This document shows, piece by piece, positions 1 to 12,378 of a stretch of 16,015 nt of DNA (the first letter of the stretch is position 1; each line of letters begins with the position of its first letter). The position numbers were made by a program, and so were the translations under genes. The notes beneath the pieces were generated by a model. The model was given only the letters and a program-made list of their open reading frames with translations. It did no database searches and had not been told where the DNA came from. The DNA comes from a virus (Duplodnaviria > Heunggongvirae > Uroviricota > Caudoviricetes): the IMG/VR virus record IMGVR_UViG_2851955134_000007; one strand, written 5' to 3'.

Positions 1-1164
1 TTACGCCTTCTTTATATCCTCCATAATTCCAGAGTGGGACATATTTGGGACATTATCACCAAAAATGTCGTCTATTTTCCTCGCATGCTCTGTCAAATGA
101 TTAGGCGCAAGGTGAGCATACCTACGAACCATTTCTATGGACTCCCATCCGCCCATTTCCTGAAGCACTGATAATGGGACGCCTGACTGAATCAGCCAGC
201 TTGCCCAGGTGTGTCTGAGGTCATGGAAACGGAAATCTTCAATTCCTGCACGACGACAAGCTGATAGCCATGATGTCTTGCTGTCGATGCGCATCTTCCT
301 GACCGCAGGCGTTGATGTTCCATCTGCTCGCTTAGCCGCCTTGGTATGTACAAACACCCATTTGTGATGCTTGCCTATTTGATCACGCAACACTTTACAG
401 GCGGTATCGTTCAGCGCCACACCAATGGCGCGGTTTGATTTGCTCTCTTCTGGATTCACCCAGGCAACTCGTCGCTGCATGTCGATTTGTTGCCATTCCA
501 GATTTATGATGTTCGACTTTCTCAGACCAGTTGCCAGCGCAAACTTGACGACAGATTTCAGTGGTTCGGGGCACTCATCAATAAGGCGTTTTGCTTCCTC
601 CTTTTCCAGCCATCTGACTCGCTTGTTTCTGACCGCTGGTATCTTGATGACAGGCGCTTTTTCCAGCCACTTCCAGTCGCGTTCTGCAGCACGGAGAATG
701 GCCTTTATCATGGCAAGATGCTTTGCCTTTGTCTGAGTTGATACTGGCTTTGGTTCATAAACAGGCGGTTCTTTACCTTTCCTGATGGCGGCCTGAACTT
801 TCTGTTTCCATATTTCTTTCGTCTTTCTGTTATGCATTCTGCTTACAGCAGAGTAAATCTTTGCCTCCGAGATATCTTTAAGCCTTATACCCTCAAAATG
901 TTCAAGCCAGAACTCAATCCGGCTTTTATCTGAATCGAGAGATTTTTTATCAGCTTTTTCCTCAAGCCATCTTAGGCAGGCCTCTTCAAAAGTGACATCA
1001 GGTAAATCCCCTAGCTTTTCTACTCGCCAGAGTTCTGCTTTTCGCTTGTCGTGCAACTCCTGAGCTTGCCGCTTGTCCTTTGTGCCAAGAGATTCCTTAA
1101 TTCGTTTCCCGCCCGGGAGCGAATACGAGGCATACCATATTTTATTTCTGCGGAAGAGTGACAT
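1..1164 (-). CDS. int: Tyrosine-type phage integrase, 387 aa, lambdoid (phage 21 / DLP12 IntD-like)
   Basis: Complete ORF with GAGG Shine-Dalgarno upstream of the ATG at 1164. C-terminal catalytic motifs [10 protein letters not shown] and VRRYAHL (catalytic Tyr). N-terminal arm-binding region resembles lambdoid integrases as recalled. Stop codon sits at window positions 1-3. Confidence 0.9.
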
Positions 1165-1391
1165 TTTCTTTCCTCTGTTATGCCATCACCCGCGCTCACC
1201 TGGACAGTATGCAGCGGAGACTGAAGCGCCGCAATGCAGGCTTGCCGTGTTGTGAGGTAAGGAGATTTTGGCTTGGTTGGATCTTTACGTGTTGCCTGTA
1301 GGCGGCCTGTTCGTATCCAGTTGGTGGCGGTTGGTCTGGATATCTTAAGAAACTGACAGGCCTCATCGAGTGTGAGGCTGTATGATTCCAT
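1020..1391 (-). CDS. xis: Excisionase-like HTH protein (AlpA/Xis family); 3-prime end uncertain
   Basis: ATG at 1391 preceded by GAGG at 5 nt spacing. N-terminal HTH-like segment [24 protein letters not shown]. The ORF runs 145 nt into int, which is unusually long, so the C-terminal extension may not be real. Confidence 0.55.
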
Positions 1392-1641
1392 GGTTACCTC
1401 TGCTTTTTGAACGCATGTCACGTAACTTCTTAATGTGTTCTGCCGTTTCGATCTCTTCTGCTATCCGATCTGCATCAGCTTTATTCACAGGTTCAAAGTC
1501 ATGATTAAAGCGGAACATGCTGGCGATACATGTTCTGCCTTTTCGGATGTAGTGAACTTTGTTGTGGGTAGAACGCAGGATTTTGCAGGGAGTGCCGTGG
1601 TGGTCGACGTACCAGGTGTTAGGCAAAATGATTCTGAACAT
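1363..1641 (-). CDS. Hypothetical prophage early-left protein, 92 aa
   Basis: ORF with good RBS (GAGGTG about 6 nt upstream of the ATG at 1641); overlaps the xis start by 29 nt. No family recognised. Confidence 0.5.
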   Translation of the reverse strand: MFRIILPNTWYVDHHGTPCKILRSTHNKVHYIRKGRTCIASMFRFNHDFEPVNKADADRIAEEIETAEHIKKLRDMRSKSRGNHGIIQPHTR

Positions 1642-1688
1642 TTTTACACCTCAGTTGGACGATGTTGAAATTTGCTGCTTTGAGGCCA

Positions 1689-1907
1689 TCACAATCCCCA
1701 TTGTTTGTTCTTAAGTTCGATCTCCTCCTGGCAGCTTGCACAAGTCCGACAACCCTGAACGGCCAGGCGTCTTCGTTCATCTATGGGATCGCCACACTCA
1801 CAACAATGAGTGGCAGATATAACCTGGTGGTTCAGACGACGCATTTTTATTGCTGTATTGCGCTGTAATTCTTCGATTTCTGATGCTGAATCAATGATGT
1901 CTGCCAT
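1689..1907 (-). CDS. Small zinc-ribbon protein, TraR/DksA-like C4 type, 72 aa
   Basis: Two CxxC pairs (C-C-E-C and C-R-T-C, about 14 residues apart) in a 72 aa ORF, as in phage TraR/DksA-family proteins. Confidence 0.6.
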   Translation of the reverse strand: MADIIDSASEIEELQRNTAIKMRRLNHQVISATHCCECGDPIDERRRLAVQGCRTCASCQEEIELKNKQWGL

Positions 1908-1957
1908 CTTCCATTAATCCCTGAATTGTTGGTTAATACGCTTGAGGGTGAATGCGA

Positions 1958-1985
1958 ATAATAAAAAAGGAGCCTGTAGCTCCCT
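1958..1985 (-). terminator. Intrinsic terminator candidate for leftward transcription
   Basis: Minus-strand hairpin GGAGC-loop-GCTCC (1969-1983) followed by a T run (plus-strand A run 1963-1968). Lies between the 71 aa ORF stop and the zinc-ribbon gene start. Confidence 0.45.
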
Positions 1986-2005
1986 GATGATTTTGCTTTT
2001 CATGT

Positions 2006-2221
2006 TCATCGCTCCTTAAAGACGCCGTTTAACATGCCGATCGCCAGGCTTAAATGAGTCGGTGTGAATCCCATCAGCGTTACCGTTTCGCGGTGCTTCT
2101 TCAGTACGCTACGGCAAATGTCATCGACGTTTTTATCCGGAAACTGCTGTCTGGCTTTTTTGATTTCAGAATTAGCCTGACGGGCTATGCTGCGAAGGGC
2201 GTTTTCCTGCTGAGGTGTCAT
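2006..2221 (-). CDS. Hypothetical protein, 71 aa (MTPQQENALRSIARQ...)
   Basis: Start chosen at the ATG at 2221, which overlaps the stop of an upstream 27 aa ORF (ATGA). The 104 aa extension in the ORF track has no RBS support. Confidence 0.45.
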   Translation of the reverse strand: MTPQQENALRSIARQANSEIKKARQQFPDKNVDDICRSVLKKHRETVTLMGFTPTHLSLAIGMLNGVFKER

Positions 2222-2301
2222 TGAACAAGTCCCATGTCGGCAAGCATAAGCACACAGAATATGAAGCCCGCTGCCAGAAAAATGCATTCCGTGGTTGTCA
2301 T
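2218..2301 (-). CDS. Putative small hydrophobic peptide, 27 aa (MTTTECIFLAAGFIFCVLMLADMGLVQ)
   Basis: Below the ORF-track size cutoff; found by reading the strand. GGAGG about 4 nt upstream of the ATG. Hydrophobic core long enough for one transmembrane helix. Stop overlaps the start of the 71 aa ORF. Confidence 0.3.
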   Translation of the reverse strand: MTTTECIFLAAGFIFCVLMLADMGLVQ

Positions 2302-2369
2302 GCAGCCTCCCGACGGGCAAGAATCCTTGAGCCGAACGCCATCAACTCTCCACGATCAACGGTCGTAAA

Positions 2370-2993
2370 GTGGCAGTGTGTACGGGGGTACAGCAGGTAG
2401 CGCAGATCATCAACGGTGTGTTCAGCCAGTTACTGGCAACTTTCCCGGCGAGCCTGGCTAACCGTGACCAGAACGAAGTGAACGAAATCCGTCGCCAGTG
2501 GGTTCTGGCTTTTCGGGAAAACGGGATCACCACGATGGAACAGGTTAACGCAGGAATGCGCGTAGCCCGTCGGCAGAATCGACCATTTCTGCCATCACCC
2601 GGGCAGTTTGTTGCATGGTGCCGGGAAGAAGCATCCGTTATCGCCGGACTGCCAAACGTCAGCGAGCTGGTTGATATGGTTTACGAGTATTGCCGGAAGC
2701 GAGGCCTGTATCCGGATGCGGAGTCTTATCCGTGGAAATCAAACGCGCACTACTGGCTGGTTACCAACCTGTATCAGAACATGCGGGCCAATGCGCTTAC
2801 TGATGCGGAATTACGCCGTAAGGCCGCAGATGAGCTTGTCCATATGACTGCGAGAATTAACCGTGGTGAGGCGATCCCTGAACCAGTAAAACAACTTCCT
2901 GTCATGGGCGGTAGACCTCTAAATCGTGCACAGGCTCTGGCGAAGATCTCAGAAATCAAAGCTAAGTTCGGACTAAAAGGAGCAAGTGTATGA
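2370..2993 (+). pseudogene. P: Replication protein P, C-terminal fragment (about 200 aa); N-terminus deleted
   Basis: From about 2385 (VQQVAQIINGVFSQLLATFPASLANRDQNEVNEIRRQWVLAFRENG...) the translation matches the C-terminal part of lambda P as recalled. Upstream sequence is unrelated and the only in-frame start is a GTG without RBS. Confidence 0.85.
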
Positions 2994-3280
2994 CGGGCAA
3001 AGAGGCAATTATTCATTACCTGGGGACGCATAATAGCTTCTGTGCGCCGGACGTTGCCGCGCTAACAGGCGCAACAGTAACCAGCATAAATCAGGCCGCG
3101 GCTAAAATGGCACGGGCAGGTCTTCTGGTTATCGAAGGTAAGGTCTGGCGAACGGTGTATTACCGGTTTGCTACTAGGGAAGAACGGGAAGGAAAGATGA
3201 GCACGAACCTGATTTTTAAGGAGTGTCGCCAGAGTGCCGCGATGAAACGGGTATTGGCGGTATATGGAGTTAAAAGATGA
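2990..3280 (+). CDS. ren: Ren protein, 96 aa
   Basis: MTGKEAIIHYLGTHNSFCAPDVAALTGATVTS... matches lambda Ren as recalled. ATG overlaps the P stop (ATGA). Confidence 0.85.
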   Translation: MTGKEAIIHYLGTHNSFCAPDVAALTGATVTSINQAAAKMARAGLLVIEGKVWRTVYYRFATREEREGKMSTNLIFKECRQSAAMKRVLAVYGVKR

Positions 3281-3305
3281 CCATCTACATTACTGAGCTA
3301 ATAAC

Positions 3306-3337
3306 AGGCCTGCTGGTAATCGCAGGCCTTTTTATTT
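3306..3337 (+). terminator. Rho-independent terminator, tR2-like
   Basis: Stem AGGCCTGC (3306-3313) / GCAGGCCT (3322-3329) with 8-nt loop, followed by TTTTTATTT. Same position (between ren and ninB) as lambda tR2. Confidence 0.7.
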
Positions 3338-3353
3338 GGGGGAGAGGGAAGTC

Positions 3354-3794
3354 ATGAAAAAACTAACCTTTGAAATTCGATCTCCAGCACATCAGCAAAA
3401 CGCTATTCACGCAGTACAGCAAATCCTTCCAGACCCAACCAAACCAATCGTAGTAACCATTCAGGAACGCAACCGCAGCTTAGACCAAAACAGGAAGCTA
3501 TGGGCCTGCTTAGGTGACGTCTCTCGTCAGGTTGAATGGCATGGTCGCTGGCTGGATGCAGAAAGCTGGAAGTGTGTGTTTACCGCAGCATTAAAGCAGC
3601 AGGATGTTGTTCCTAACCTTGCCGGGAATGGCTTTGTGGTAATAGGCCAGTCAACCAGCAGGATGCGTGTAGGCGAATTTGCGGAGCTATTAGAGCTTAT
3701 ACAGGCATTCGGTACAGAGCGTGGCGTTAAGTGGTCAGACGAAGCGAGACTGGCTCTGGAGTGGAAAGCGAGATGGGGAGATCGGGCTGCATGA
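3354..3794 (+). CDS. ninB: NinB (recombination mediator, Orf family), 146 aa
   Basis: MKKLTFEIRSPAHQQNAIHAVQQILPDPTKPIVVTIQERNRSLDQNRKLW... recognised as lambda NinB. GGGAGAGGGAAG RBS upstream. Confidence 0.9.
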   Translation: MKKLTFEIRSPAHQQNAIHAVQQILPDPTKPIVVTIQERNRSLDQNRKLWACLGDVSRQVEWHGRWLDAESWKCVFTAALKQQDVVPNLAGNGFVVIGQSTSRMRVGEFAELLELIQAFGTERGVKWSDEARLALEWKARWGDRAA

Positions 3795-4318
3795 CTATCA
3801 AATCAAATACGCCAGCACACGACAAGGACTGCTGGCAAACGCCGCTTTGGCTTTTTGATGCACTGGATATTGAGTTTGGATTCTGGCTGGATTCGGCAGC
3901 GAGCGACAAAAATGCTCTGTGTGCTCACTGGCTAACTGAGGCCGACGACGCGCTCAATTCTGAGTGGGTAAGCCACGGTGCAATCTGGAATAACCCACCG
4001 TACAGCAATATCAGGCCGTGGGTGGAAAAAGCCGCTGAGCAGTGCATACAACAGCGACAGACGGTAGTTATGCTTGTGCCAGAGGATATGTCAGTCGGAT
4101 GGTTCAGCAAGGCTCTGGAGAGTGTCGACGAAGTTCGCATTATCACTGATGGACGGATTAATTTTATCGAACCATCGACAGGGTTGGAGAAGAAGGGAAA
4201 CAGCAAAGGCTCCATGCTGCTGATTTGGCGACCGTTCATCAGTCCTCGACGGATGTTTACTACCGTATCCAAAGCGGCATTGATGGCGATCGGGCAGGGC
4301 GTCAGGAGGGCGGCATGA
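3791..4318 (+). CDS. Orphan DNA N6-adenine methyltransferase (phage Dam-like), about 175 aa
   Basis: [13 protein letters not shown] motif and the catalytic NPPY tetrapeptide (AIWNNPPYS). ATG overlaps the ninB stop (ATGA). No restriction endonuclease gene adjacent. Confidence 0.8.
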
Positions 4319-4491
4319 GGCGACAGCGACGAAGTTTCACCGACATCATCTGCGAAAACTGCAAATACCTTCCAACGAAACGCTCCAGAAATAAACGCAA
4401 GCCAATCCCAAAAGAATCTGACGTAAAAACCTTCAATTACACAGCTCACCTGTGGGATATCCGGTGGCTAAGATATCGTGCGAGGAAATGA
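4315..4491 (+). CDS. ninE: NinE, 58 aa
   Basis: [58 protein letters not shown] matches lambdoid NinE as recalled. GGAGGG RBS; ATG overlaps the methyltransferase stop. Confidence 0.8.
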
Positions 4492-4493
4492 CA

Positions 4494-4835
4494 ATGGATT
4501 ATTCACAGTTAAGTGATTTTGAAATTAACAGAATGGTAGGAGACATAATTTTTAAAGGCCTTTGGGCAAGTAAACCGGAAACATCAGGGAATAACATCAA
4601 CAAATGGTATTACGGAAATGCTGATACAACTTTTGAGCCATTAAATCATTTGCCTGACTACTGCAATGATCCGAGCGCTTCATGGCCGATTATTGAGAAA
4701 TACAGGATTTCTATCTTAGACCAGTTAACTGAATGGTGTGTGGATGCAAAAGGCGTAAGCCCAATATTTGATACCAGACCTCTCCGCGCCGCCATGATTG
4801 TCTTTCTCCTGATGCAGGAGGCCAATAATGCTTAG
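4494..4835 (+). CDS. Hypothetical nin-region protein, 113 aa ([22 protein letters not shown]...)
   Basis: ORF directly after ninE. Start taken at the second ATG (4494), 8 nt after GAGG; an alternative ATG at 4488 overlaps the ninE stop. No family recognised. Confidence 0.55.
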
Positions 4836-5022
4836 CCCATCTCAATCCCTTCAATACCTGAAAGGAAGCATAGAGCGGGCTTCAATGAGCACAGAGTGGA
4901 TTCTATCTAGGTTTAGCGCATACAGAAGATTGCCGGTAAAGGGCATGCCAAGCAAGTCGATGCTGCATATGCAAAAGAATGCGCGCTGGAAGGTATGGCG
5001 AAAACACAGGTTATGTGGCTGA
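4828..5022 (+). CDS. Hypothetical small basic protein, 64 aa
   Basis: GGAGG 6 nt upstream of the ATG; start overlaps the stop of the preceding ORF. No motif recognised. Confidence 0.4.
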
Positions 5023-5041
5023 AAGAGGGGATTATTAAGGC

Positions 5042-5404
5042 GTGAATACCTACAGCATCACATTACCCTGGCCTCCGAGCAATAATCGCTATTACCGCCA
5101 TAATCGCGGGCGCACGCACGTCAGCGCAGAGGGGCAGGCATACCGCGATAACGTCGCCAGAATCATTAAAAACGCAATGCTGGATATCGGCCTGGCTATC
5201 CCTGTGAAAATCCGCATTGAGTGCCACATGCCGGATCGCCGTCGCCGTGACCTGGATAATCTGCAAAAAGCCGCTTTTGACGCACTCACTAAAGCAGGTT
5301 TCTGGCTGGATGATGCTCAGGTCGTTGATTACCGCGTTGTGAAGATGCCTGTTACCAAAGGTGGGAGGCTGGAACTGACCATCACCGAAATGGGGAATGA
5401 ATGA
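5042..5404 (+). CDS. rusA: RusA Holliday-junction resolvase, 120 aa
   Basis: [42 protein letters not shown]... recognised as E. coli DLP12 RusA. GTG start. Confidence 0.9.
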
Positions 5405-5541
5405 TGTTTGAGTTTAATATGGCAGAACTTCTTCGCCACCGCTGGATGCGCCTGCGCTTATATCGTTTCCCCAGTTCTGTTTTGACCGATTACCGAATAC
5501 TGAGGAATTACGCCAAAACCCTGACAGGAGCAGGAGTATGA
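5401..5541 (+). CDS. ylcG: Small protein YlcG-like, 46 aa
   Basis: [49 protein letters not shown], read manually. Start overlaps the rusA stop; same position as ylcG in DLP12 as recalled. Confidence 0.55.
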
Positions 5542-5626
5542 AGTCAGAGATAACAATCAACTAATACTGTTTTATTGATTTTTGCTTGTAATTGGCGTTC
5601 TGGTCTGATTTTTGTGGAGTAAGTTG

Positions 5627-6010
5627 ATGCGTGATATTCAGATGGTTCTTGAGCGTTGGGGAGCGTGGGCGGCTAATAATCATGAAGATGTGACCTGGTC
5701 GTCCATTGCCGCCGGTTTTAAGGGATTAATTACTTCAAAAGTAAAATCTCGCCCGCAATGTTGTGACGATGACGCGATGATCATTTGCGGGTGCATGGCC
5801 CGTCTGAAAAAGAACAACAGCGATTTGCACGATTTATTAGTAGATTATTATGTAGTCGGTATGACATTCATGTCACTGGCAGGTAAGCATTGCTGCTCTG
5901 ATGGTTATATCGGGAAAAGGTTACAGAAGGCTGAGGGCATAATTGAAGGGATGTTAATGGCATTAGATATCCGGTTAGAGATGGATATCGTTGTTAATAA
6001 CTCTAATTAA
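5627..6010 (+). CDS. quuD: Late-gene antiterminator Q, phage-82 type, 127 aa
   Basis: [33 protein letters not shown]... with Cys clusters [13 protein letters not shown] and KHCCSDG. Recognised as DLP12 QuuD. The ORF-track start at 5612 is an upstream extension. Confidence 0.85.
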
Positions 6011-6043
6011 TATGCCAATTGTTTACTAAAAATTATTAAAAAT

Positions 6044-6190
6044 GGGGCGTTGAGACGCCCCCAAAAATAAAGGGTAATATATAACAGAAGGTTTATATAG
6101 TTAGAAGCAAGGTTGTGCTTCTAAAGGAAGTGGCTTGAGGGAGCCACTTATATGTTGGGGAGGCAAAGCCTCCCGCAACATATCTTTTTC
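6044..6190 (+). promoter_or_regulatory. Late-promoter / terminator region between Q and convergent nmpC
   Basis: Four inverted repeats: GGGGCGT-TGAG-ACGCCCC (6044-6061), GAAGCA-AGGTTG-TGCTTC (about 6104-6125), AAGTGGCT-TGAGGG-AGCCACTT (about 6128-6149) and a 34-nt near-palindrome (6150-6183) followed by CTTTTTC. Candidate -35 TTGAGA (6050-6055) and -10 TAATAT (6075-6080), spacing not optimal. Confidence 0.4.
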
Positions 6191-6199
6191 GTAATCAGA

Positions 6200-7160
6200 T
6201 TAGAACTGATACACCAGACCTACAGCGACGATGTCGTCGGTATCAATACCAGCTGTTTTGGTAAACTTACTATCGTCAATTAAGTTGATTTTGTAATCAA
6301 CAAAAGTGGACATGTTTTTATTAAAGTAGTAAGTAGCACCGACATCGACATACTTGACTAAGTCTCGGTCACCATGAACACCAAGGTCTTTACCTTTTGA
6401 CTGAAGGTAAGCAACAGATGGTCGCAGACCGAAGTCAAACTGATATTGTGCTACTGCTTCAAAGTTTTGTGCTTTGTTTGCAATATGGTTATTACCAAAA
6501 ACGGTCATATTCTGAGTTTCAGAATATGTGGTAGCCAGATAGATATTGTTCGCATCATATTTCAGGCCTGCAGCCCATACTTCCGCATTTTTGCCGGAGG
6601 CATTGAATTTGCTCTTACCATAGGCGACCTGACCGTCAGTGCGATCTGATTTAGCATAGGTTGCACCCACGCCGAATCCTTCATACTCATAAGTAGTGGA
6701 GAAACCGAAACCATCACCATTGGCTTCAGTTACGTCAGTGCGGTCATTTTTACCCTGATACTGAGCAGCAAAGTTCAGGCCATCGACCAGACCAAAGAAG
6801 TCGTTGTTACGATAGGTTGCAACACCAGTGGTGCGACCAGTCATGAACACATCTGTTTGGGTCCAGGTATCGCCACCGAATTCTGGCAGAACGTCAGTCC
6901 ACGCACCGATGTCGTATGCTACACCGTAGTTACGGCCGTAATCGATTGAGCCGTAGTCACCGAATTTCAGGCCTGCAAATGCAAGACGGGTTTTGTCTTT
7001 GGAGGAACCTTGAGATTCAGCGCGGTTGCCTTTGAATTCATATTCCCACTGACCGAAACCAGTCAGTTGATCGTTGATTTGGGTTTCACCTTTGAAGCCA
7101 AGACGGGCATAAGTAGTATCACCATCATCTGCATCGTTAGATGAAAAGTAGTGCTTGGCA
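6200..7160 (-). pseudogene. nmpC: Porin NmpC (OmpC/OmpD family), 3-prime portion from codon 44 to stop, cut off by IS10
   Basis: Translation ...[42 protein letters not shown]... to C-terminal ...VGLVYQF (terminal Phe typical of outer-membrane beta-barrels). The MRGSLSA start in the ORF track is read-through from the IS10 end, not a real start. Confidence 0.9.
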
Positions 7161-7173
7161 CTGAGAGATCCCC

Positions 7174-8382
7174 TCATAATTTCCCCAAAACGTAACCATG
7201 TGTGAATAGATTTTGAGTAAGCAGGGTTGCAGCCACGAGTGAGTCTTCCCTTGTTATTGTGTAGCCAGAATGCCGCAAAACTTCCATGCCTAAGCGAACT
7301 GTTGAGAGTACGTTTCGATTTCTGACTGTGTTAGCCTGGAAGTGCTTGTCCCAACCTTGTTTCTGAGCATGAACGCCCGCAAGCCAACATGTTAGTTGAA
7401 GCATCAGGGCGATTAGCAGCATGATATCAAAACGCTCTGAGCTGCTCGTTCGGCTATGGCGTAGGCCTAGTCCGTAGGCAGGACTTTTCAAGTCTCGGAA
7501 GGTTTCTTCAATCTGCATTCGCTTCGAATAGATATTAACAAGTTGTTTGGGTGTTCGAATTTCAACAGGTAAGTTAGTTGCTAGAATCCATGGCTCCTTT
7601 GCCGACGCTGAGTAGATTTTAGGTGACGGGTGGTGACAATGAGTCCGTGTCGAGCGCTGATTTTTTCGGCCTTTAGAGCGAGATTTATACAATAGAATTT
7701 GGCATGAGATTGGATTGCTTTTAGTCAGCCTCTTATAGCCTAAAGTCTTTGAGTGACTAGATGACATATCATGTAAGTTGCTGATAGGTTTCCAGTTTTC
7801 CGCTCCTAGGTCTGCATATTGTACTTTTCCTCTTACTCGACTTAACCAGTACCAACCCAGCTTCTCAACGGATTTATACCATGGCACTTTAAAGCCAGCA
7901 TCACTGACAATGAGCGGTGTGGTGTTACTCGGTAGAATGCTCGCAAGGTCGGCTAGAAATTGGTCATGAGCTTTCTTTGAACATTGCTCTGAAAGCGGGA
8001 ACGCTTTCTCATAAAGAGTAACAGAACGACCGTGTAGTGCGACTGAAGCTCGCAATACCATAAGCCGTTTTTGCTCACGGATATCAGACCAGTCAACAAG
8101 TACAATGGGCATCGTATTGCCCGAACAGATAAAGCTAGCATGCCAACGGTATACAGCGAGTCGCTCTTTGTGGAGGTGACGATTACCTAACAATCGGTCG
8201 ATTCGTTTGATGTTATGTTTTGTTCTCGCTTTGGTTGGCAGGTTACGGCCAAGTTCGGTAAGAGTGAGAGTTTTACAGTCAAGTAAGGCGTGGCAAGCCA
8301 ACGTTAAGCTGTTGAGTCGTTTTAAGTGTAATTCGGGGCAGAATTGGTAAAGAGAGTCGTGTAAAATATCGAGTTCGCACAT
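7174..8382 (-). CDS. tnp: IS10 transposase, 402 aa
   Basis: [71 protein letters not shown]... recognised as IS10/Tn10 transposase. Start 108 bp from the outside end, as in IS10. Confidence 0.95.
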
Positions 8383-8443
8383 TTTGTTGTCTGATTATTG
8401 ATTTTTGGCGAAACCATTTGATCATATGACAAGATGTGTATCT
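8375..8443 (+). ncRNA. IS10 RNA-OUT antisense RNA (position by analogy with canonical IS10)
   Basis: Region antisense to the transposase 5-prime end; sequence TCGCACATTTTGTTGTCTGATTATTGATTTTTGGCGAAACCATTTGATCATATGACAAG resembles RNA-OUT as recalled and contains the Dam GATC site. Exact ends not determined from sequence. Confidence 0.45.
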
Positions 8444-8489
8444 ACCTTAACTTAATGATTTTGATAAAAATCATTAGGGGATTCATCAG

Positions 8490-8620
8490 TGCTTGGCATT
8501 AACTTTCCCGTACAGATCCAGCTTGTTACTGTCTTTATTATAAATTTCAGCTGCCTGAGCAGACATCGTCATCAGTACTGATGCAGCTACAGCAGAAATT
8601 GCCACTGTTAATTTTTTCAT
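8490..8620 (-). pseudogene. nmpC: Porin NmpC, 5-prime portion (signal peptide plus first mature residues), separated from the rest by IS10
   Basis: Minus-strand translation MKKLTVAISAVAASVLMTMSAQAAEIYNKDSNKLDLYGKVNAKH: signal peptide with AQA-AE cleavage site. Reading frame joins exactly to the 3-prime portion once IS10 and one repeat copy are removed (1083 nt, 360 codons plus stop). Confidence 0.9.
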
Positions 8621-9208
8621 CGTGAGCCCTTTTTTTTGAACTATTATTAAAAAATGATGTCACTGCGCGATAAATATTCATCTAATCAATGTGATTATTT
8701 CAAGATGTAAGTTTTAGTTTCTCATTTAATTTGTGAAGTAGATCTCTATTTTTATCTGAACTTTTTCTATCGAAACCTATTTATGGCTCTTATTTGAACA
8801 AAAATAAACCTATTAGCTAATTTATATTAATGGCTGTTATTTATGGGGGTTCTATAATTCGGTGGTTTAATTTAAATCAACTAAAAATAACGCCGGAAAT
8901 TATTTATTGGTTATTTGTTGAGGTTTTCTTATATATTTGTGGTGGTGTTTTGAACACTCGGTAGCATTCTCATAAATATCATTCAGTGGTTTACGTACGT
9001 AAAAAATTGGTTATGCTGTTAAGAGTGGTTACTTCGTCACACAGCTTAAACCCGCCGTCGAGCTGGTTTTTCCATTTTTTGAGTCTCGATATTAGCTGAT
9101 AACTCAATACCTGAGTTATTCACTGACTCCGAGTCTGTTACGTTTCTGCTTTTTTGCGATACGTTGTATTCCCTCAATTTACACCCGCTTTGTCTGCGAG
9201 GTGGGGTT

Positions 9209-9424
9209 ATGAAATCCATGGATAAGTTAACAACGGGTGTCGCCTATGGCACCTCAGCAGGTAGTGCCGGTTACTGGTTTTTACAGCTGCTCGATAAAGT
9301 CACGCCCTCACAGTGGGCAGCAATAGGTGTGCTGGGTAGCCTGGTATTTGGCCTGCTGACGTACCTGACAAACCTTTATTTCAAGATTAAAGAAGATAAG
9401 CGCAAGGCTGCGAGAGGTGAATAA
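9209..9424 (+). CDS. essD: Class II holin / pinholin, phage-21 S type, 71 aa with dual start
   Basis: [71 protein letters not shown]; Met1-Lys-Ser-Met4 dual-start motif; GAGGTGGGG RBS. Matches phage 21 S as recalled. Confidence 0.9.
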
Positions 9425-9921
9425 TGCCTCCATCATTACGAAAAGCCGTTGCTGCTGCTATTGGTGGCGGAGCAATTGCTATAGCATCAGTGTTAATCAC
9501 TGGCCCAAGTGGTAACGATGGTCTGGAAGGTGTCAGCTACATACCATACAAAGATATTGTTGGTGTATGGACTGTATGTCACGGGCATACAGGAAAAGAC
9601 ATCATGCTCGGTAAAACGTATACCAAAGCAGAATGCAAAGCCCTCCTGAATAAAGACCTTGCCACGGTCGCCAGACAAATTAACCCGTACATAAAAGTTG
9701 ATATACCGGAAACAACGCGCGGCGCTCTTTACTCGTTCGTTTACAACGTGGGCGCTGGCAATTTCAGAACATCGACGCTTCTTCGCAAAATAAACCAGGG
9801 CGATATCAAAGGCGCATGTGATCAGCTACGTCGCTGGACATATGCTGGCGGTAAGCAATGGAAAGGTCTCATGACTCGTCGTGAGATTGAGCGTGAAATC
9901 TGTTTGTGGGGTCAGCAATGA
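9424..9921 (+). CDS. rrrD: SAR endolysin (T4-lysozyme-like, phage 21 R type), 165 aa
   Basis: N-terminal signal-anchor-release segment [20 protein letters not shown] followed by a lysozyme-like domain. Start overlaps the holin stop (TAATG). Confidence 0.9.
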
Positions 9922-10379
9922 ACAGAGTAACCGCGATTATCTCCGCTCTGGTTATCTGCATCATCGTCTGCCTGTCATGGGCTGTTAATCATTACCGTGA
10001 TAACGCCATTACCTACAAAGCCCAGCGCGACAAAAATGCCAGAGAACTGAAGCTGGCGAACGCGGCAATTACTGACATGCAGATGCGCCAGCGTGATGTT
10101 GCTGCACTGGATGAAAAATACACGAAGGAGTTAGCTAATGCGAAAGCTGAAAATGATGCTCTGCGTGATGATGTTGCCGCTGGTCGTCGTCGGTTGCACA
10201 TCAAAGCAGTCTGTCAGTCAGTGCGTGAAGCCACCACCGCCTCCGGCGTGGATAATGCAGCCTCCCCCCGACTGGCAGACACCGCTGAACGGGATTATTT
10301 CACCCTCAGAGAGAGGCTGATCACTATGCAAAAACAACTGGAAGGAACCCAGAAGTATATTAATGAGCAGTGCAGATAG
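9918..10379 (+). CDS. rzpD: Rz inner-membrane spanin, about 153 aa
   Basis: N-terminal TM helix ([21 protein letters not shown]) then coiled-coil periplasmic region. ATG overlaps the endolysin stop (ATGA). Confidence 0.85.
10138..10320 (+). CDS. rzoD: Rz1 outer-membrane lipoprotein spanin, 60 aa, embedded in Rz in the +1 frame
   Basis: [24 protein letters not shown]... with lipobox LVVVGC and proline-rich region [24 protein letters not shown] 7 nt upstream. Confidence 0.85.
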
Positions 10380-10410
10380 AGCTGCCCATATCGATGGGCA
10401 ACTCATGCAA

Positions 10411-10704
10411 TTATTGTGAGCAATACACACGCGCTTCCAGCGGAGTATAAATGCCTAAAGTAATAAAACCGAGCAATCCATTTACGAATGTTTGCTGGGT
10501 TTCTGTTTTAACAACATTTTCTGCGCCGCCACAAATTTTGGCTGCATCAACAGTTTTCTCCTGTCCAATTCCCGAAACGAAGAAGTGATGGGTGATGGTT
10601 TCCTTTGGTGTTACTGCTGTCGGTTTGTTTCCAACAGTAAACGTCTGTTGAGCACATCCTGTAATAAGCATTGCCAGAGCGGCAGAAAACAACATTTTTT
10701 TCAT
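10411..10704 (-). CDS. borD: Bor lipoprotein (serum-resistance-associated), 97 aa
   Basis: MKKMLFSAALAMLITGCAQQTFTVGNKPTAVTPKETITHHFFVSGIGQEK... with lipobox LITGC. Recognised as lambda Bor. Start at internal Met17 of the ORF-track ORF. Confidence 0.85.
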   Translation of the reverse strand: MKKMLFSAALAMLITGCAQQTFTVGNKPTAVTPKETITHHFFVSGIGQEKTVDAAKICGGAENVVKTETQQTFVNGLLGFITLGIYTPLEARVYCSQ

Positions 10705-11419: not shown

Positions 11420-11640
11420 CATTTTGCGGGTCCTTTCCGGCGATCCGACAGGTTACGGGGCGGCGACCTCGCGGGTTTTCGCTATTTATGAAAATTTTCC
11501 GGTTTAAGGCATTTCCGTTCTTCTTCGTCGTAACTTAATGTTTTTATTTAAAATACCCCCTGAAAAGAAAGGAAACGACAGGTGCTGAAAACGAGCTTTT
11601 GGGCCTCTGTCGTTTCCTTTCTCTGTTTTTGGCCGTGGAA
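11420..11640 (+). other. cos: cos site: cosQ, cosN (12-nt cohesive end GGGCGGCGACCT at 11458-11469) and cosB with terminase-binding repeats
   Basis: Sequence ...CGGGTCCTTTCCGGCGATCCGACAGGTTACG|GGGCGGCGACCTCGCGGGTTTTCGCTATTTATGAAAATTTTCCGGTTTAAGGC... matches the joined right and left ends of phage lambda as recalled. R-element-like repeats AAAGGAAACGACAG (about 11569-11582) and CTGTCGTTTCCTTTCT (about 11608-11623). Confidence 0.85.
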
Positions 11641-11646
11641 TGAACA

Positions 11647-12192
11647 ATGGAAGTCAACAAAAAGCAGCTGGCTGACATTTTCGGTGCGAGTATCCGTACC
11701 ATTCAGAACTGGCAGGAACAGGGAATGCCCGTTCTGCGAGGCGGTGGCAAGGGTAATGAGGTGCTTTATGACTCTGCCGCCGTTATAAGATGGTATGCCG
11801 AAAGGGATGCTGAAATTGAGAACGAAAAGCTGCGCCGGGAAGTTGAAGAACTGCGGCAGGCCAGCGAGACAGATCTCCAGCCAGGGGCTATTGAGTACGA
11901 ACGCCATCGACTTACGCGTGCGCAGGCCGACGCACAGGAGCTGAAAAATGCCAGAGACTCCGCTGAAGTGGTGGAAACCGCATTCTGTACTTTCGTGCTG
12001 TCGCGGATCGCAGGTGAAATTGCCAGTATTCTCGACGGGATCCCCCTGTCGGTGCAGCGGCGTTTTCCGGAACTGGAAAACCGACATGTTGATTTCCTGA
12101 AACGGGATATCATCAAAGCCATGAACAAAGCAGCCGCGCTGGATGAACTGATACCGGGGTTGCTGAGTGAATATATCGAACAGTCAGGTTAA
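11647..12192 (+). CDS. nohD: Terminase small subunit Nu1, 181 aa
   Basis: MEVNKKQLADIFGASIRTIQNWQEQGMPVLRGGGKGNEVLYDSAAVIRWYAERD... near-identical to lambda Nu1 as recalled. Confidence 0.9.
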   Translation: MEVNKKQLADIFGASIRTIQNWQEQGMPVLRGGGKGNEVLYDSAAVIRWYAERDAEIENEKLRREVEELRQASETDLQPGAIEYERHRLTRAQADAQELKNARDSAEVVETAFCTFVLSRIAGEIASILDGIPLSVQRRFPELENRHVDFLKRDIIKAMNKAAALDELIPGLLSEYIEQSG

Positions 12193-12378
12193 CAGGCTGC
12201 GGCATTTTGTCCGCGCCGGGCTTCGCTCACTGTTCAGGCCGGAGCCACAGACCGCCGTTGAATGGGCGGATGCTAATTACTATCTCCCGAAAGAATCCGC
12301 ATACCAGGAAGGGCGCTGGGAAACACTGCCCTTTCAGCGGGCCATCATGAATGCGATGGGCAGCGACTATAACTGTTA
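12167..12378 (+). pseudogene. A: Terminase large subunit A, N-terminal approx 66 codons only
   Basis: MNISNSQVNRLRHFVRAGLRSLFRPEPQTAVEWADANYYLPKESAYQEGRWETLPFQRAIMNAMGSDY matches the lambda gpA N-terminus; similarity ends after GSDY at about 12376-12380. GTG start overlapping the Nu1 3-prime end, as in lambda. Confidence 0.8.

Follow-up and report, generated by a model that had tools for sequence, protein, structure and literature searches.

How did a lambdoid prophage come to carry leftward accessory genes joined directly to a replication gene that lacks its own start? The locus that raises this question is the IMG/VR virus record IMGVR_UViG_2851955134_000007 (16,015 nucleotides, hereafter the window), which on sequence comparison is a DLP12-family cryptic lambdoid prophage reaching from intD to appY. 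The original prediction, made from the letters of this DNA, had placed a deletion scar at 2300-2400 and ascribed to it the loss of the immunity region and of the replication origin. With a probability of roughly 0.9, we read positions 2387-2390 as the join of an illegitimate (non-homologous) deletion in a prophage of this family residing at the tRNA-Arg gene argU. The features that make up the scar are the following.

2298..2390, minus strand: 3' remnant of an N6-adenine methyltransferase gene, 30 codons and the stop, forming the left arm of the scar (alignment to locus L001 and to PhiR30_1; translation)
2387..2390, no strand: deletion junction, shared GGTA (parental versus junction sequences; overlapping high-scoring segment pairs)
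2388..2993, plus strand: truncated replication gene P, codons 33-233 and the stop (tblastn, PF06992, RefSeq)
2990..3280, plus strand: ren, the first intact gene of the rightward operon (tblastn of Ren residues 1-92 at 91%, phrog_142, annotation)

Comparison with the intact, inducible phage PhiR30_1 revealed that window positions 1-2390 correspond to its positions 41-2430 and window positions 2387-3258 to its positions 9769-10640, the two arms being collinear with this phage and likewise with the intact phage PhiR68_2. The scar is a single point at 2387-2390, with the left arm running up to 2390, the right arm starting at 2387 and GGTA as the overlap between them; this parental overlap measures four bases (GGTA) relative to intact PhiR30_1 and two bases (TA) relative to an ancestor of the type found in Escherichia coli TUM9803. 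DNA similarity to dozens of intact lambdoid phages starts abruptly at 2387. On the other side, positions 1-2390 match positions 3001-5390 of the related locus L001 without interruption, where the coding sequence 5298-5855 is annotated as a phage N-6-adenine-methyltransferase, and positions 2298-2390 are base for base the 3' end of this minus-strand gene, with the stop codon at 2298-2300 (PhiR30_1 2338-2430). The deletion predicted at 2300-2400 is borne out by these alignments, but the 65-bp gap proposed between the arms is not, as 2298-2390 is methyltransferase remnant and the scar is therefore a point. Similarly, the leftward open reading frame (ORF) that was said to end near 2320 was found (2006..2320, minus strand, TTG start), but 2320 is only its mechanical limit, the annotated orf61-like gene reaching no further than 2221 or, by the PHROG profile, ATG 2287. 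The flanking operons diverge from the scar, with minus-strand genes to its left and plus-strand genes to its right, rather than converging on 2320-2385 as had been expected; this is the layout on either side of the lambda immunity region, and the conclusion that a deletion took place is unaffected. In the mechanism that we propose, DNA would have been broken at two TA sites, one 93 nt from the 3' end of the methyltransferase gene and the other in codon 33 of P, and the broken ends would have been rejoined via the shared GGTA (or TA).

Inspection of 2300-2450 revealed no insertion sequence (IS) end, IS sequence, target duplication or extra base at the join, and relative to the intact phages the two arms abut directly, which bears on whether the deletion was made by an IS, as an adjacent deletion, or by the phage integrase acting at a secondary attachment (att) site. 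IS activity is evident in the DLP12 family, with IS10 in the porin gene here and IS3, IS1, IS5 and IS629 in relatives; IS629-bounded deletions were found in other loci, and the cryptic prophages of laboratory lambda were reportedly described by Redfield and Campbell in 1987 as IS2 substitutions. The direct abutment of the arms nevertheless speaks against an IS route, as does the fact that among 186 related loci no relative carried an IS exactly at the methyltransferase or P breakpoint, and a former IS lost by precise excision has nothing in its support. The sole IS in the window is IS10 at 7162-8490. An integrase, in turn, is hard to reconcile with two endpoints that are both internal (in the methyltransferase gene and in P), neither lying at attL or attR. 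We therefore regard both routes as improbable. The exact join of the methyltransferase remnant to truncated P was present in 0 of 5,426 complete E. coli genomes, while the same join and the same 207-amino-acid ORF were recovered on two contigs of an independent public assembly (Logan SRR3112331), which argues against misassembly.

On intact PhiR30_1 the two arms lie 7,338 bp apart (positions 2431-9768), and the intervening DNA contains the part of the methyltransferase gene that is missing here, orf60a, exo, bet, gam, kil, two unnamed genes, cI, cro, cII, O and codons 1-32 of P. When orf63, orf60a, exo, bet, gam, cI, cro, cII and O of PhiR68_2 were used as tblastn queries (E <= 1e-3), none had a match anywhere in the window, and the RefSeq annotation of the 99.9% identical TUM9803 locus shows no other replication module. 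This agrees with the predicted absence of exo, bet, gam, cI, cro, cII, O and the N-terminus of P, as does the collinearity with PhiR30_1, and no homologue of a repressor, cro, cII or O was found elsewhere in the element. Lambda-type replication origins sit inside O, and the origin has therefore been lost with it. The loss of about 7.3 kb would have taken the repressor with its operators and promoters (pL, pR and pRM), cro, cII, and O with the origin.

We considered whether the locus might instead be no deletion at all but a natural mosaic of a viable phage that keeps its immunity and replication modules elsewhere. Lambdoid phages are mosaic, and the window itself carries ninB and a methyltransferase gene where K-12 has emrE-ybcK-ybcL-ybcM. 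The window, however, covers the element from int to appY without a repressor, cro, cII, O or other replication module, P has no start codon, the methyltransferase gene is reduced to 30 codons, and the large terminase, head and tail genes are missing, leaving a mosaic origin scarcely credible.

Returning to the deletion, the right arm of the scar preserves most of P. Residues 33-233 of the PhiR68_2 P protein align at 2388-2990 with 97% identity and no gaps (tblastn), so that P homology sets in at 2387, close to the predicted 2385, but not in mid-gene as had been thought: of the 233 codons the cut removes only those before codon 33, which leaves the Pfam Phage_lambda_P domain complete (PF06992, profile positions 1-162 of 162, E = 5.7e-62). 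The plus-strand ORF 2370..2993 opens with GTG 2370 and places six foreign codons, read from antisense methyltransferase sequence, ahead of P; the nearest in-frame stop upstream of this GTG is at 2328. As predicted, only this GTG precedes P and it has no ribosome-binding site, with no Shine-Dalgarno-like purine run in the upstream sequence ACGATCAACGGTCGTAAA. One weak sigma-70-like match faces P (TTGTCA-18-AAGAAT at 2295-2324, score 9/12), but promoter matches in the region are no more frequent than chance (2 found versus 1.4 expected from shuffled sequence), and neither a start bearing a ribosome-binding site nor a promoter above this level was found upstream. Nothing remains of residues 1-32, of the ATG, or of O and pR. 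RefSeq labels the identical TUM9803 stretch 'replication protein P, incomplete, missing N-terminus', and we class the P fragment as a peaD-type pseudogene.

A truncated P expressed from GTG 2370 as a functional 207-amino-acid protein, capable for example of binding DnaB, would be compatible with a frame that is open for 207 codons and contains the entire Pfam domain, with the weak promoter-like match 46 nt upstream and with the calling of this ORF as a gene on the independent contig. However, no ribosome-binding site precedes the frame, its first six codons are read from the antisense strand of the methyltransferase gene, the RefSeq entry is a pseudogene, and an open frame is to be expected anyway after a recent deletion. 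P is moreover cut elsewhere in other strains, with 246 bp kept in REL606 and 312 bp in K-12, which shows that no particular fragment is conserved. Function of the P fragment is thus, in our estimation, quite unlikely.

The genes that survive in the element were mapped by combining what RefSeq annotates at the TUM9803 locus with Pfam and PHROG hits among the window ORFs. By megablast against the 5,426 complete E. coli genomes, the best whole-window match, and the only near-complete one, was the argU-linked prophage of TUM9803 (99.9% identity), while about 78% of the window was covered in E. coli B, K-12 relatives and many others, in loci whose genes were always intD, quuD, rusA, essD/rrrD/rzpD, nohD and appY. 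The siting at argU follows from TUM9803: the window begins at the intD stop codon, the tRNA-Arg of TUM9803 is 15 bp from intD, this tRNA gene stands between fimZ and the prophage there, and for the window it would lie just beyond the edge. In a survey of 638 Escherichia/Shigella genomes, argU was occupied by DLP12 in 74% (PMC6379469). The TUM9803 annotation, Pfam, PHROG and cosN together reveal the lambdoid order int-xis ... P-ren-nin-rusA-Q-porin-S/R/Rz-bor-cos-Nu1 ... appY, and immunity, replication and morphogenesis genes are all absent from the window. The remaining features are these.

1..1164, minus strand: intD integrase, 387 amino acids, full length (ORF list; intD at the identical TUM9803 position; PF00589 on the identical Logan contig)
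1020..1391, minus strand: xis excisionase ORF, 123 amino acids, overlapping the int start (phrog_2907, E = 1.2e-45, profile positions 2-117 of 117)
1363-1641, minus strand: DUF4222 gene (Pfam PF13973, TUM9803 annotation)
1689-1907, minus strand: TraR/DksA zinc finger gene (Pfam PF01258, TUM9803 annotation)
2006-2221, minus strand: orf61-like gene, possible start ATG 2287 (phrog_303, TUM9803 annotation)
After ren: ninB, a second methyltransferase gene (3731-4318, plus strand), ninE, ninX, ybcO', rusA, ylcG and quuD
After quuD: a porin gene split by IS10, the lysis cassette and bor/iss
11458..11469, plus strand: cosN, the exact 12-base lambda cohesive end (exact match)
11647-12192, plus strand: nohD (Nu1) (PF07471, E = 1e-100)
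After nohD: a truncated terminase A gene joined to tail-fibre genes, then appY

The retention of int, xis and cos had been noted in the original prediction, and the full-length int, a xis ORF spanning the full profile and an exact cosN followed by Nu1 confirm it. The xis ORF region is 99% identical to that of the inducible phages PhiR30_1 and PhiR68_2 and overlaps the int start by 145 nt, suggesting that xis is probably intact. RefSeq marks only a 63-bp 'HTH, incomplete' (helix-turn-helix) fragment at this position and K-12 xisD is listed as a pseudogene; xis of DLP12-type phages may be systematically under-annotated. The cosN sequence GGGCGGCGACCT (11458-11469, in the context GGGCGGCGACCTCGCGGGTTTTC) lies 178 nt upstream of the intact Nu1 gene, at the expected distance. 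Despite int, xis, cosN and Nu1, the element is a grounded remnant since the large terminase, head and tail genes are gone, and its packaging would need a helper phage. Lacking an origin, early promoters and any repressor that could be inactivated, the prophage would be neither inducible nor able to replicate, in line with the predicted lack of replication and lambdoid immunity as far as gene content and lambda biology allow. Both remaining early operons point away from the scar and are predicted to lack promoters, which would leave rusA, Q and the lysis cassette without phage promoters. In K-12, rusA is known to behave in this way, the DLP12 gene being quiescent unless an IS supplies a promoter (PMC1636454).

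How unusual is such a deletion? The joins of other prophages were placed on PhiR30_1 coordinates, on which that of the window connects 2430 to 9769.

REL606: 2708 joined to 10133, at argU
FT130: 3021 joined to 9536, at argU
K-12: 3325 joined to 10064, plus 1299 joined to 3020, at argU
TUM9803 and E200086: 3918 joined to 9771, at argU
IAL7254: 3021 joined to 10445, next to ybhC
AHB18: 3021 joined to 8250, next to icd

At least five other joins thus remove the same region (REL606, FT130, K-12 exoD/peaD, IAL7254 and AHB18). Selection against inducible, self-replicating prophages is expected to leave just such repeated losses of the central region, and lambda biology suggests that a survivable deletion would have to remove the repressor together with kil and the replication genes. 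The scar is ordinary prophage decay, a new allele of a well-known phenomenon of which the K-12 exoD/peaD pair is the textbook example.

K-12 DLP12 (exoD/peaD, b0539/b4508) belongs to the same family as the window element, occupies the same argU/intD site and has a 5'-truncated P; it has likewise lost the stretch from the leftward exo-xis genes to the P region in a join on TA, and has kept rusA, quuD, the porin and lysis genes, cos and nohD. It differs in the position of its join and in its second, xis-exo deletion (1299 to 3020), in retaining 306 bp of exo and only 312 bp of P, in a truncated xis where that of the window is full length, in other nin-region modules, in an IS3 in ren and in carrying IS5 rather than IS10 in the porin gene. 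The intact inducible phages PhiR30_1, PhiR68_2 and PhiR34_1 (PV3405xx) are 95-99% identical to the window over int-xis and the accessory genes, over P-ren, over the rusA-Q-porin-lysis-cos-Nu1 block and at the att-proximal end, but unlike the window they have full recombination, immunity, replication and morphogenesis regions. Rac and Qin of K-12 resemble the window as grounded lambdoid remnants with large internal deletions, yet they keep their immunity regions (racR; dicA/dicC), precisely the region removed from the window element.

The closest relative raises the question of whether the 7.3 kb were lost in one step or in two. TUM9803 differs from the window at 1 of the left 2,390 bases and at 5 of the next 4,772, but holds 1,487 extra bp at the scar, made up of the methyltransferase sequence lost from the window, DUF1317, exo and the final 204 bp of bet, and its bet'/'P join reaches P within 2 bp of the window's position. 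This join was found in seven complete genomes, namely TUM9803 and six human isolates (E200086, from Mali, was examined), which as a group extend 1,487 bp further on the left, keeping DUF1317, exo, 204 bp of bet and either a full methyltransferase gene or DUF1382. Some of these strains have different neighbouring modules and flanks that are only about 97% identical around the join, suggesting that the bet'/'P join is older than the split between the window and TUM9803. We consider it probable that the scar had a two-step origin, in which the bet'/'P deletion would have come first and a second deletion, of 1,487 bp, would later have joined the methyltransferase TA to the TA of the old join in the lineage of the window. 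A single 7.3-kb deletion from an intact prophage via the 4-bp GGTA, independent of the TUM9803-type scar, would fit the presence of GGTA at both parental sites in intact PhiR30_1, the reading of the site in intact P as GG/TA, like most partner sites, and the reuse of the P codon-33 TA as a right breakpoint with bet, methyltransferase, cro and one unassigned partner. Against it stand the 99.9% identity of TUM9803 on both arms and the occurrence of the bet'/'P join in strains that are about 97% identical and have other modules, and we hold a single event to be the unlikely course.

The reuse of this breakpoint touches on a broader pattern. When the first six junctions were aligned, 6/6 fell on T or TA common to both parents. 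We therefore took 160 loci around orf61 homologues from metagenomes and IMG/VR and compared them by all-against-all BLAST, and also searched IMG/VR for specific junction patterns; the junctions were collected from 186 related loci. IS insertions were set aside and distinct junctions, not genomes, were counted, as some IMG/VR and metagenome loci may stem from related genomes; automatic clustering merged junction classes that share a hot site, and the event lists were hand-curated. As the sample was chosen for the presence of orf61, deletions extending leftward are under-sampled in it. One contig, L060, ends after the orf60a site in CTGTCTCTTATACACATCT, which we take to be the Nextera adapter, and was excluded as a library artefact. 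This revealed that the non-IS deletion junctions split into two classes, one with 5-14 bp of microhomology (such as CAGCC, GGAATG or an imperfect 11-mer) and one in which the overlap is exactly TA or, in some cases, a longer GGTA, TACC or TTA. Most of these junctions are on exact TA, that of the window included (window; L001, L003-L006, L010-L012, L034, L056, L079, L082, L095, L144, L158, L173-L186). GGTA or TACC was present at 15/23 unique TA-class sites versus 13-17% of all TA sites in these phages (P ~1.5e-7), a count independent of motif orientation, which was set by an expectation-maximisation procedure that inflates apparent conservation.

The breakpoints are also heavily reused. The first hot end, in codon 10 of orf60a (...GAAAGTGATCGCGCC-TA), has at least 15 different downstream partners, in cII, the 3' ends of O and P, ren, ybcO, the tail-fibre gene and elsewhere; the partner had TA at the join in 12/12 cases with recoverable parental sequence, and as TA makes up about 5% of positions this is not chance. 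The second, in bet (...CATGGTTTCATCGT-TA), has three partners, and the third, TA-CAGCAGGTAGCGCAG, is the right arm of the window at P codon 33, with at least four left partners (bet, the methyltransferase gene, cro and the unassigned one). In locus L174 an inverted segment is bounded by TA joins, which is easier to explain by cutting and rejoining than by copy-choice slippage; L040 may hold another inversion, but on a 1.3-kb metagenome contig that may be chimeric. The only unusual aspect of the scar is its membership in this TA-anchored class with its heavily reused breakpoints. Tentatively, and with the odds against it, the scar could exemplify a stereotyped process that breaks and rejoins DNA at preferred sequences and so grounds lambdoid prophages. 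A search of the accessible literature for TA-specific prophage deletions returned nothing relevant, which is weak evidence of novelty.

Which enzyme might make such joins? The pattern suggests a nuclease or recombinase cutting around TA next to CC/GG to give self-complementary 2-nt ends, and this activity could be one not yet described or a sideline of a known enzyme, such as the prophage RusA during abortive induction. A 2-bp self-complementary overlap is typical of serine recombinases, although it can also arise from TA overhangs left by a nuclease followed by ligation. Most junctions have the 2-bp TA overlap, but no conserved arms or inverted repeats were found beyond GGTA/TACC, and no candidate recombinase is common to all loci, ybcK being absent from the window. 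RusA is encoded in all these prophages, and its specificity matches roughly half of the partners as well as the three hot ends (retained...TA/CC...deleted, offset by 1 nt in bet), RusA being known to cut 5' of CC (PMC1636454). As a full explanation it was rejected, as the K-12 junctions do not fit and the TA requirement is left unaccounted for.

Other candidates were set aside on their geometry or specificity. DNA gyrase and Topo IV leave 4-bp overhangs (PMC6379681) versus the 2-bp overlaps here, and Rpn (YhgA-like) nucleases are without sequence specificity (PMC5350276). The orf60a hot site (L007 3010-3035, not in the window) contains CCCGGATATT, which is identical to one of the two minimal recognition sequences of GajA on lambda DNA (PMC8136825). 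This match may be coincidence: for Gabija GajA, an OLD-family nuclease, the published nick (C/GGG) is 3 nt off the TA, a second common allele, CGCGGATATT, is without the site, and Gabija is not universal. An IS5 pseudo-end was also rejected, for although the orf60a site matches what we take to be the IS5 terminal repeat at 12/16 positions, the break would then fall 2-4 nt within the putative end, and YTAR is not what the partner sites read. IS1, IS3, IS30, IS66, IS200/IS605 (TTAC), IS630, integron integrase, XerCD and the Hin family, compared by the sites we assume for them, gave no consistent geometry.

Several points weigh against our account of the scar. None of the enzymes compared fits the TA breaks fully. 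The P codon-33 TA is recurrent, with its several left partners, so that an endpoint in common with TUM9803 need not mean common ancestry. The inability of the prophage to replicate or be induced is deduced from its gene content, and the sigma-70-like match at 2295-2324 could, weakly, be a promoter facing the P fragment.

The deletion taken alone is minor, adding one more allele of the loss of the immunity/replication region from DLP12-type prophages, although it explains why rusA, Q and the lysis cassette are left without phage promoters. The rarity of its GGTA join, absent from the complete genomes and present on the two public contigs, means that it could serve as a lineage marker. Comparison among strains revealed that the same region has been removed repeatedly and independently with breakpoints far from random (TA, often GGTA/TACC, at a few reused sites), and if a specific enzyme is indeed behind the TA pattern, this would bear on how bacteria disarm prophages.

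The window contains further scars and insertions. A second scar, at 12369, interrupts the large terminase gene some 200 bp into its coding region and fuses it straight to tail-fibre DNA; the overlap is a single base and the product reads GACTATAAC. No head or tail-shaft gene is left. The original prediction had presumably counted this scar as its first. The late-region join of REL606 is different, running from Nu1/A' to J with the overlap TACC. A small scar at 4955-4956 leaves ybcO (DUF1364) without its N-terminus and abutting the ninX region, and no parental left sequence was found for this junction; in the near-identical TUM9803 locus, ninX has an internal stop (RefSeq). Two adenine-methyltransferase genes in opposite orientation once flanked the immunity region, of which only the right-hand copy (3731-4318, plus strand) is intact. 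The IS10 at 7162-8490, with the ends CTGAGAGATCCCC... and ...GGGGATTCATCAG and a 402-amino-acid DDE transposase, lies inside an nmpC/ompD-type porin gene, where it is flanked by a 9-bp target duplication (TGCTTGGCA), and it is absent from TUM9803. The same porin gene is interrupted by IS5 in K-12 and by IS1 in REL606, suggesting that it has been hit several times independently.

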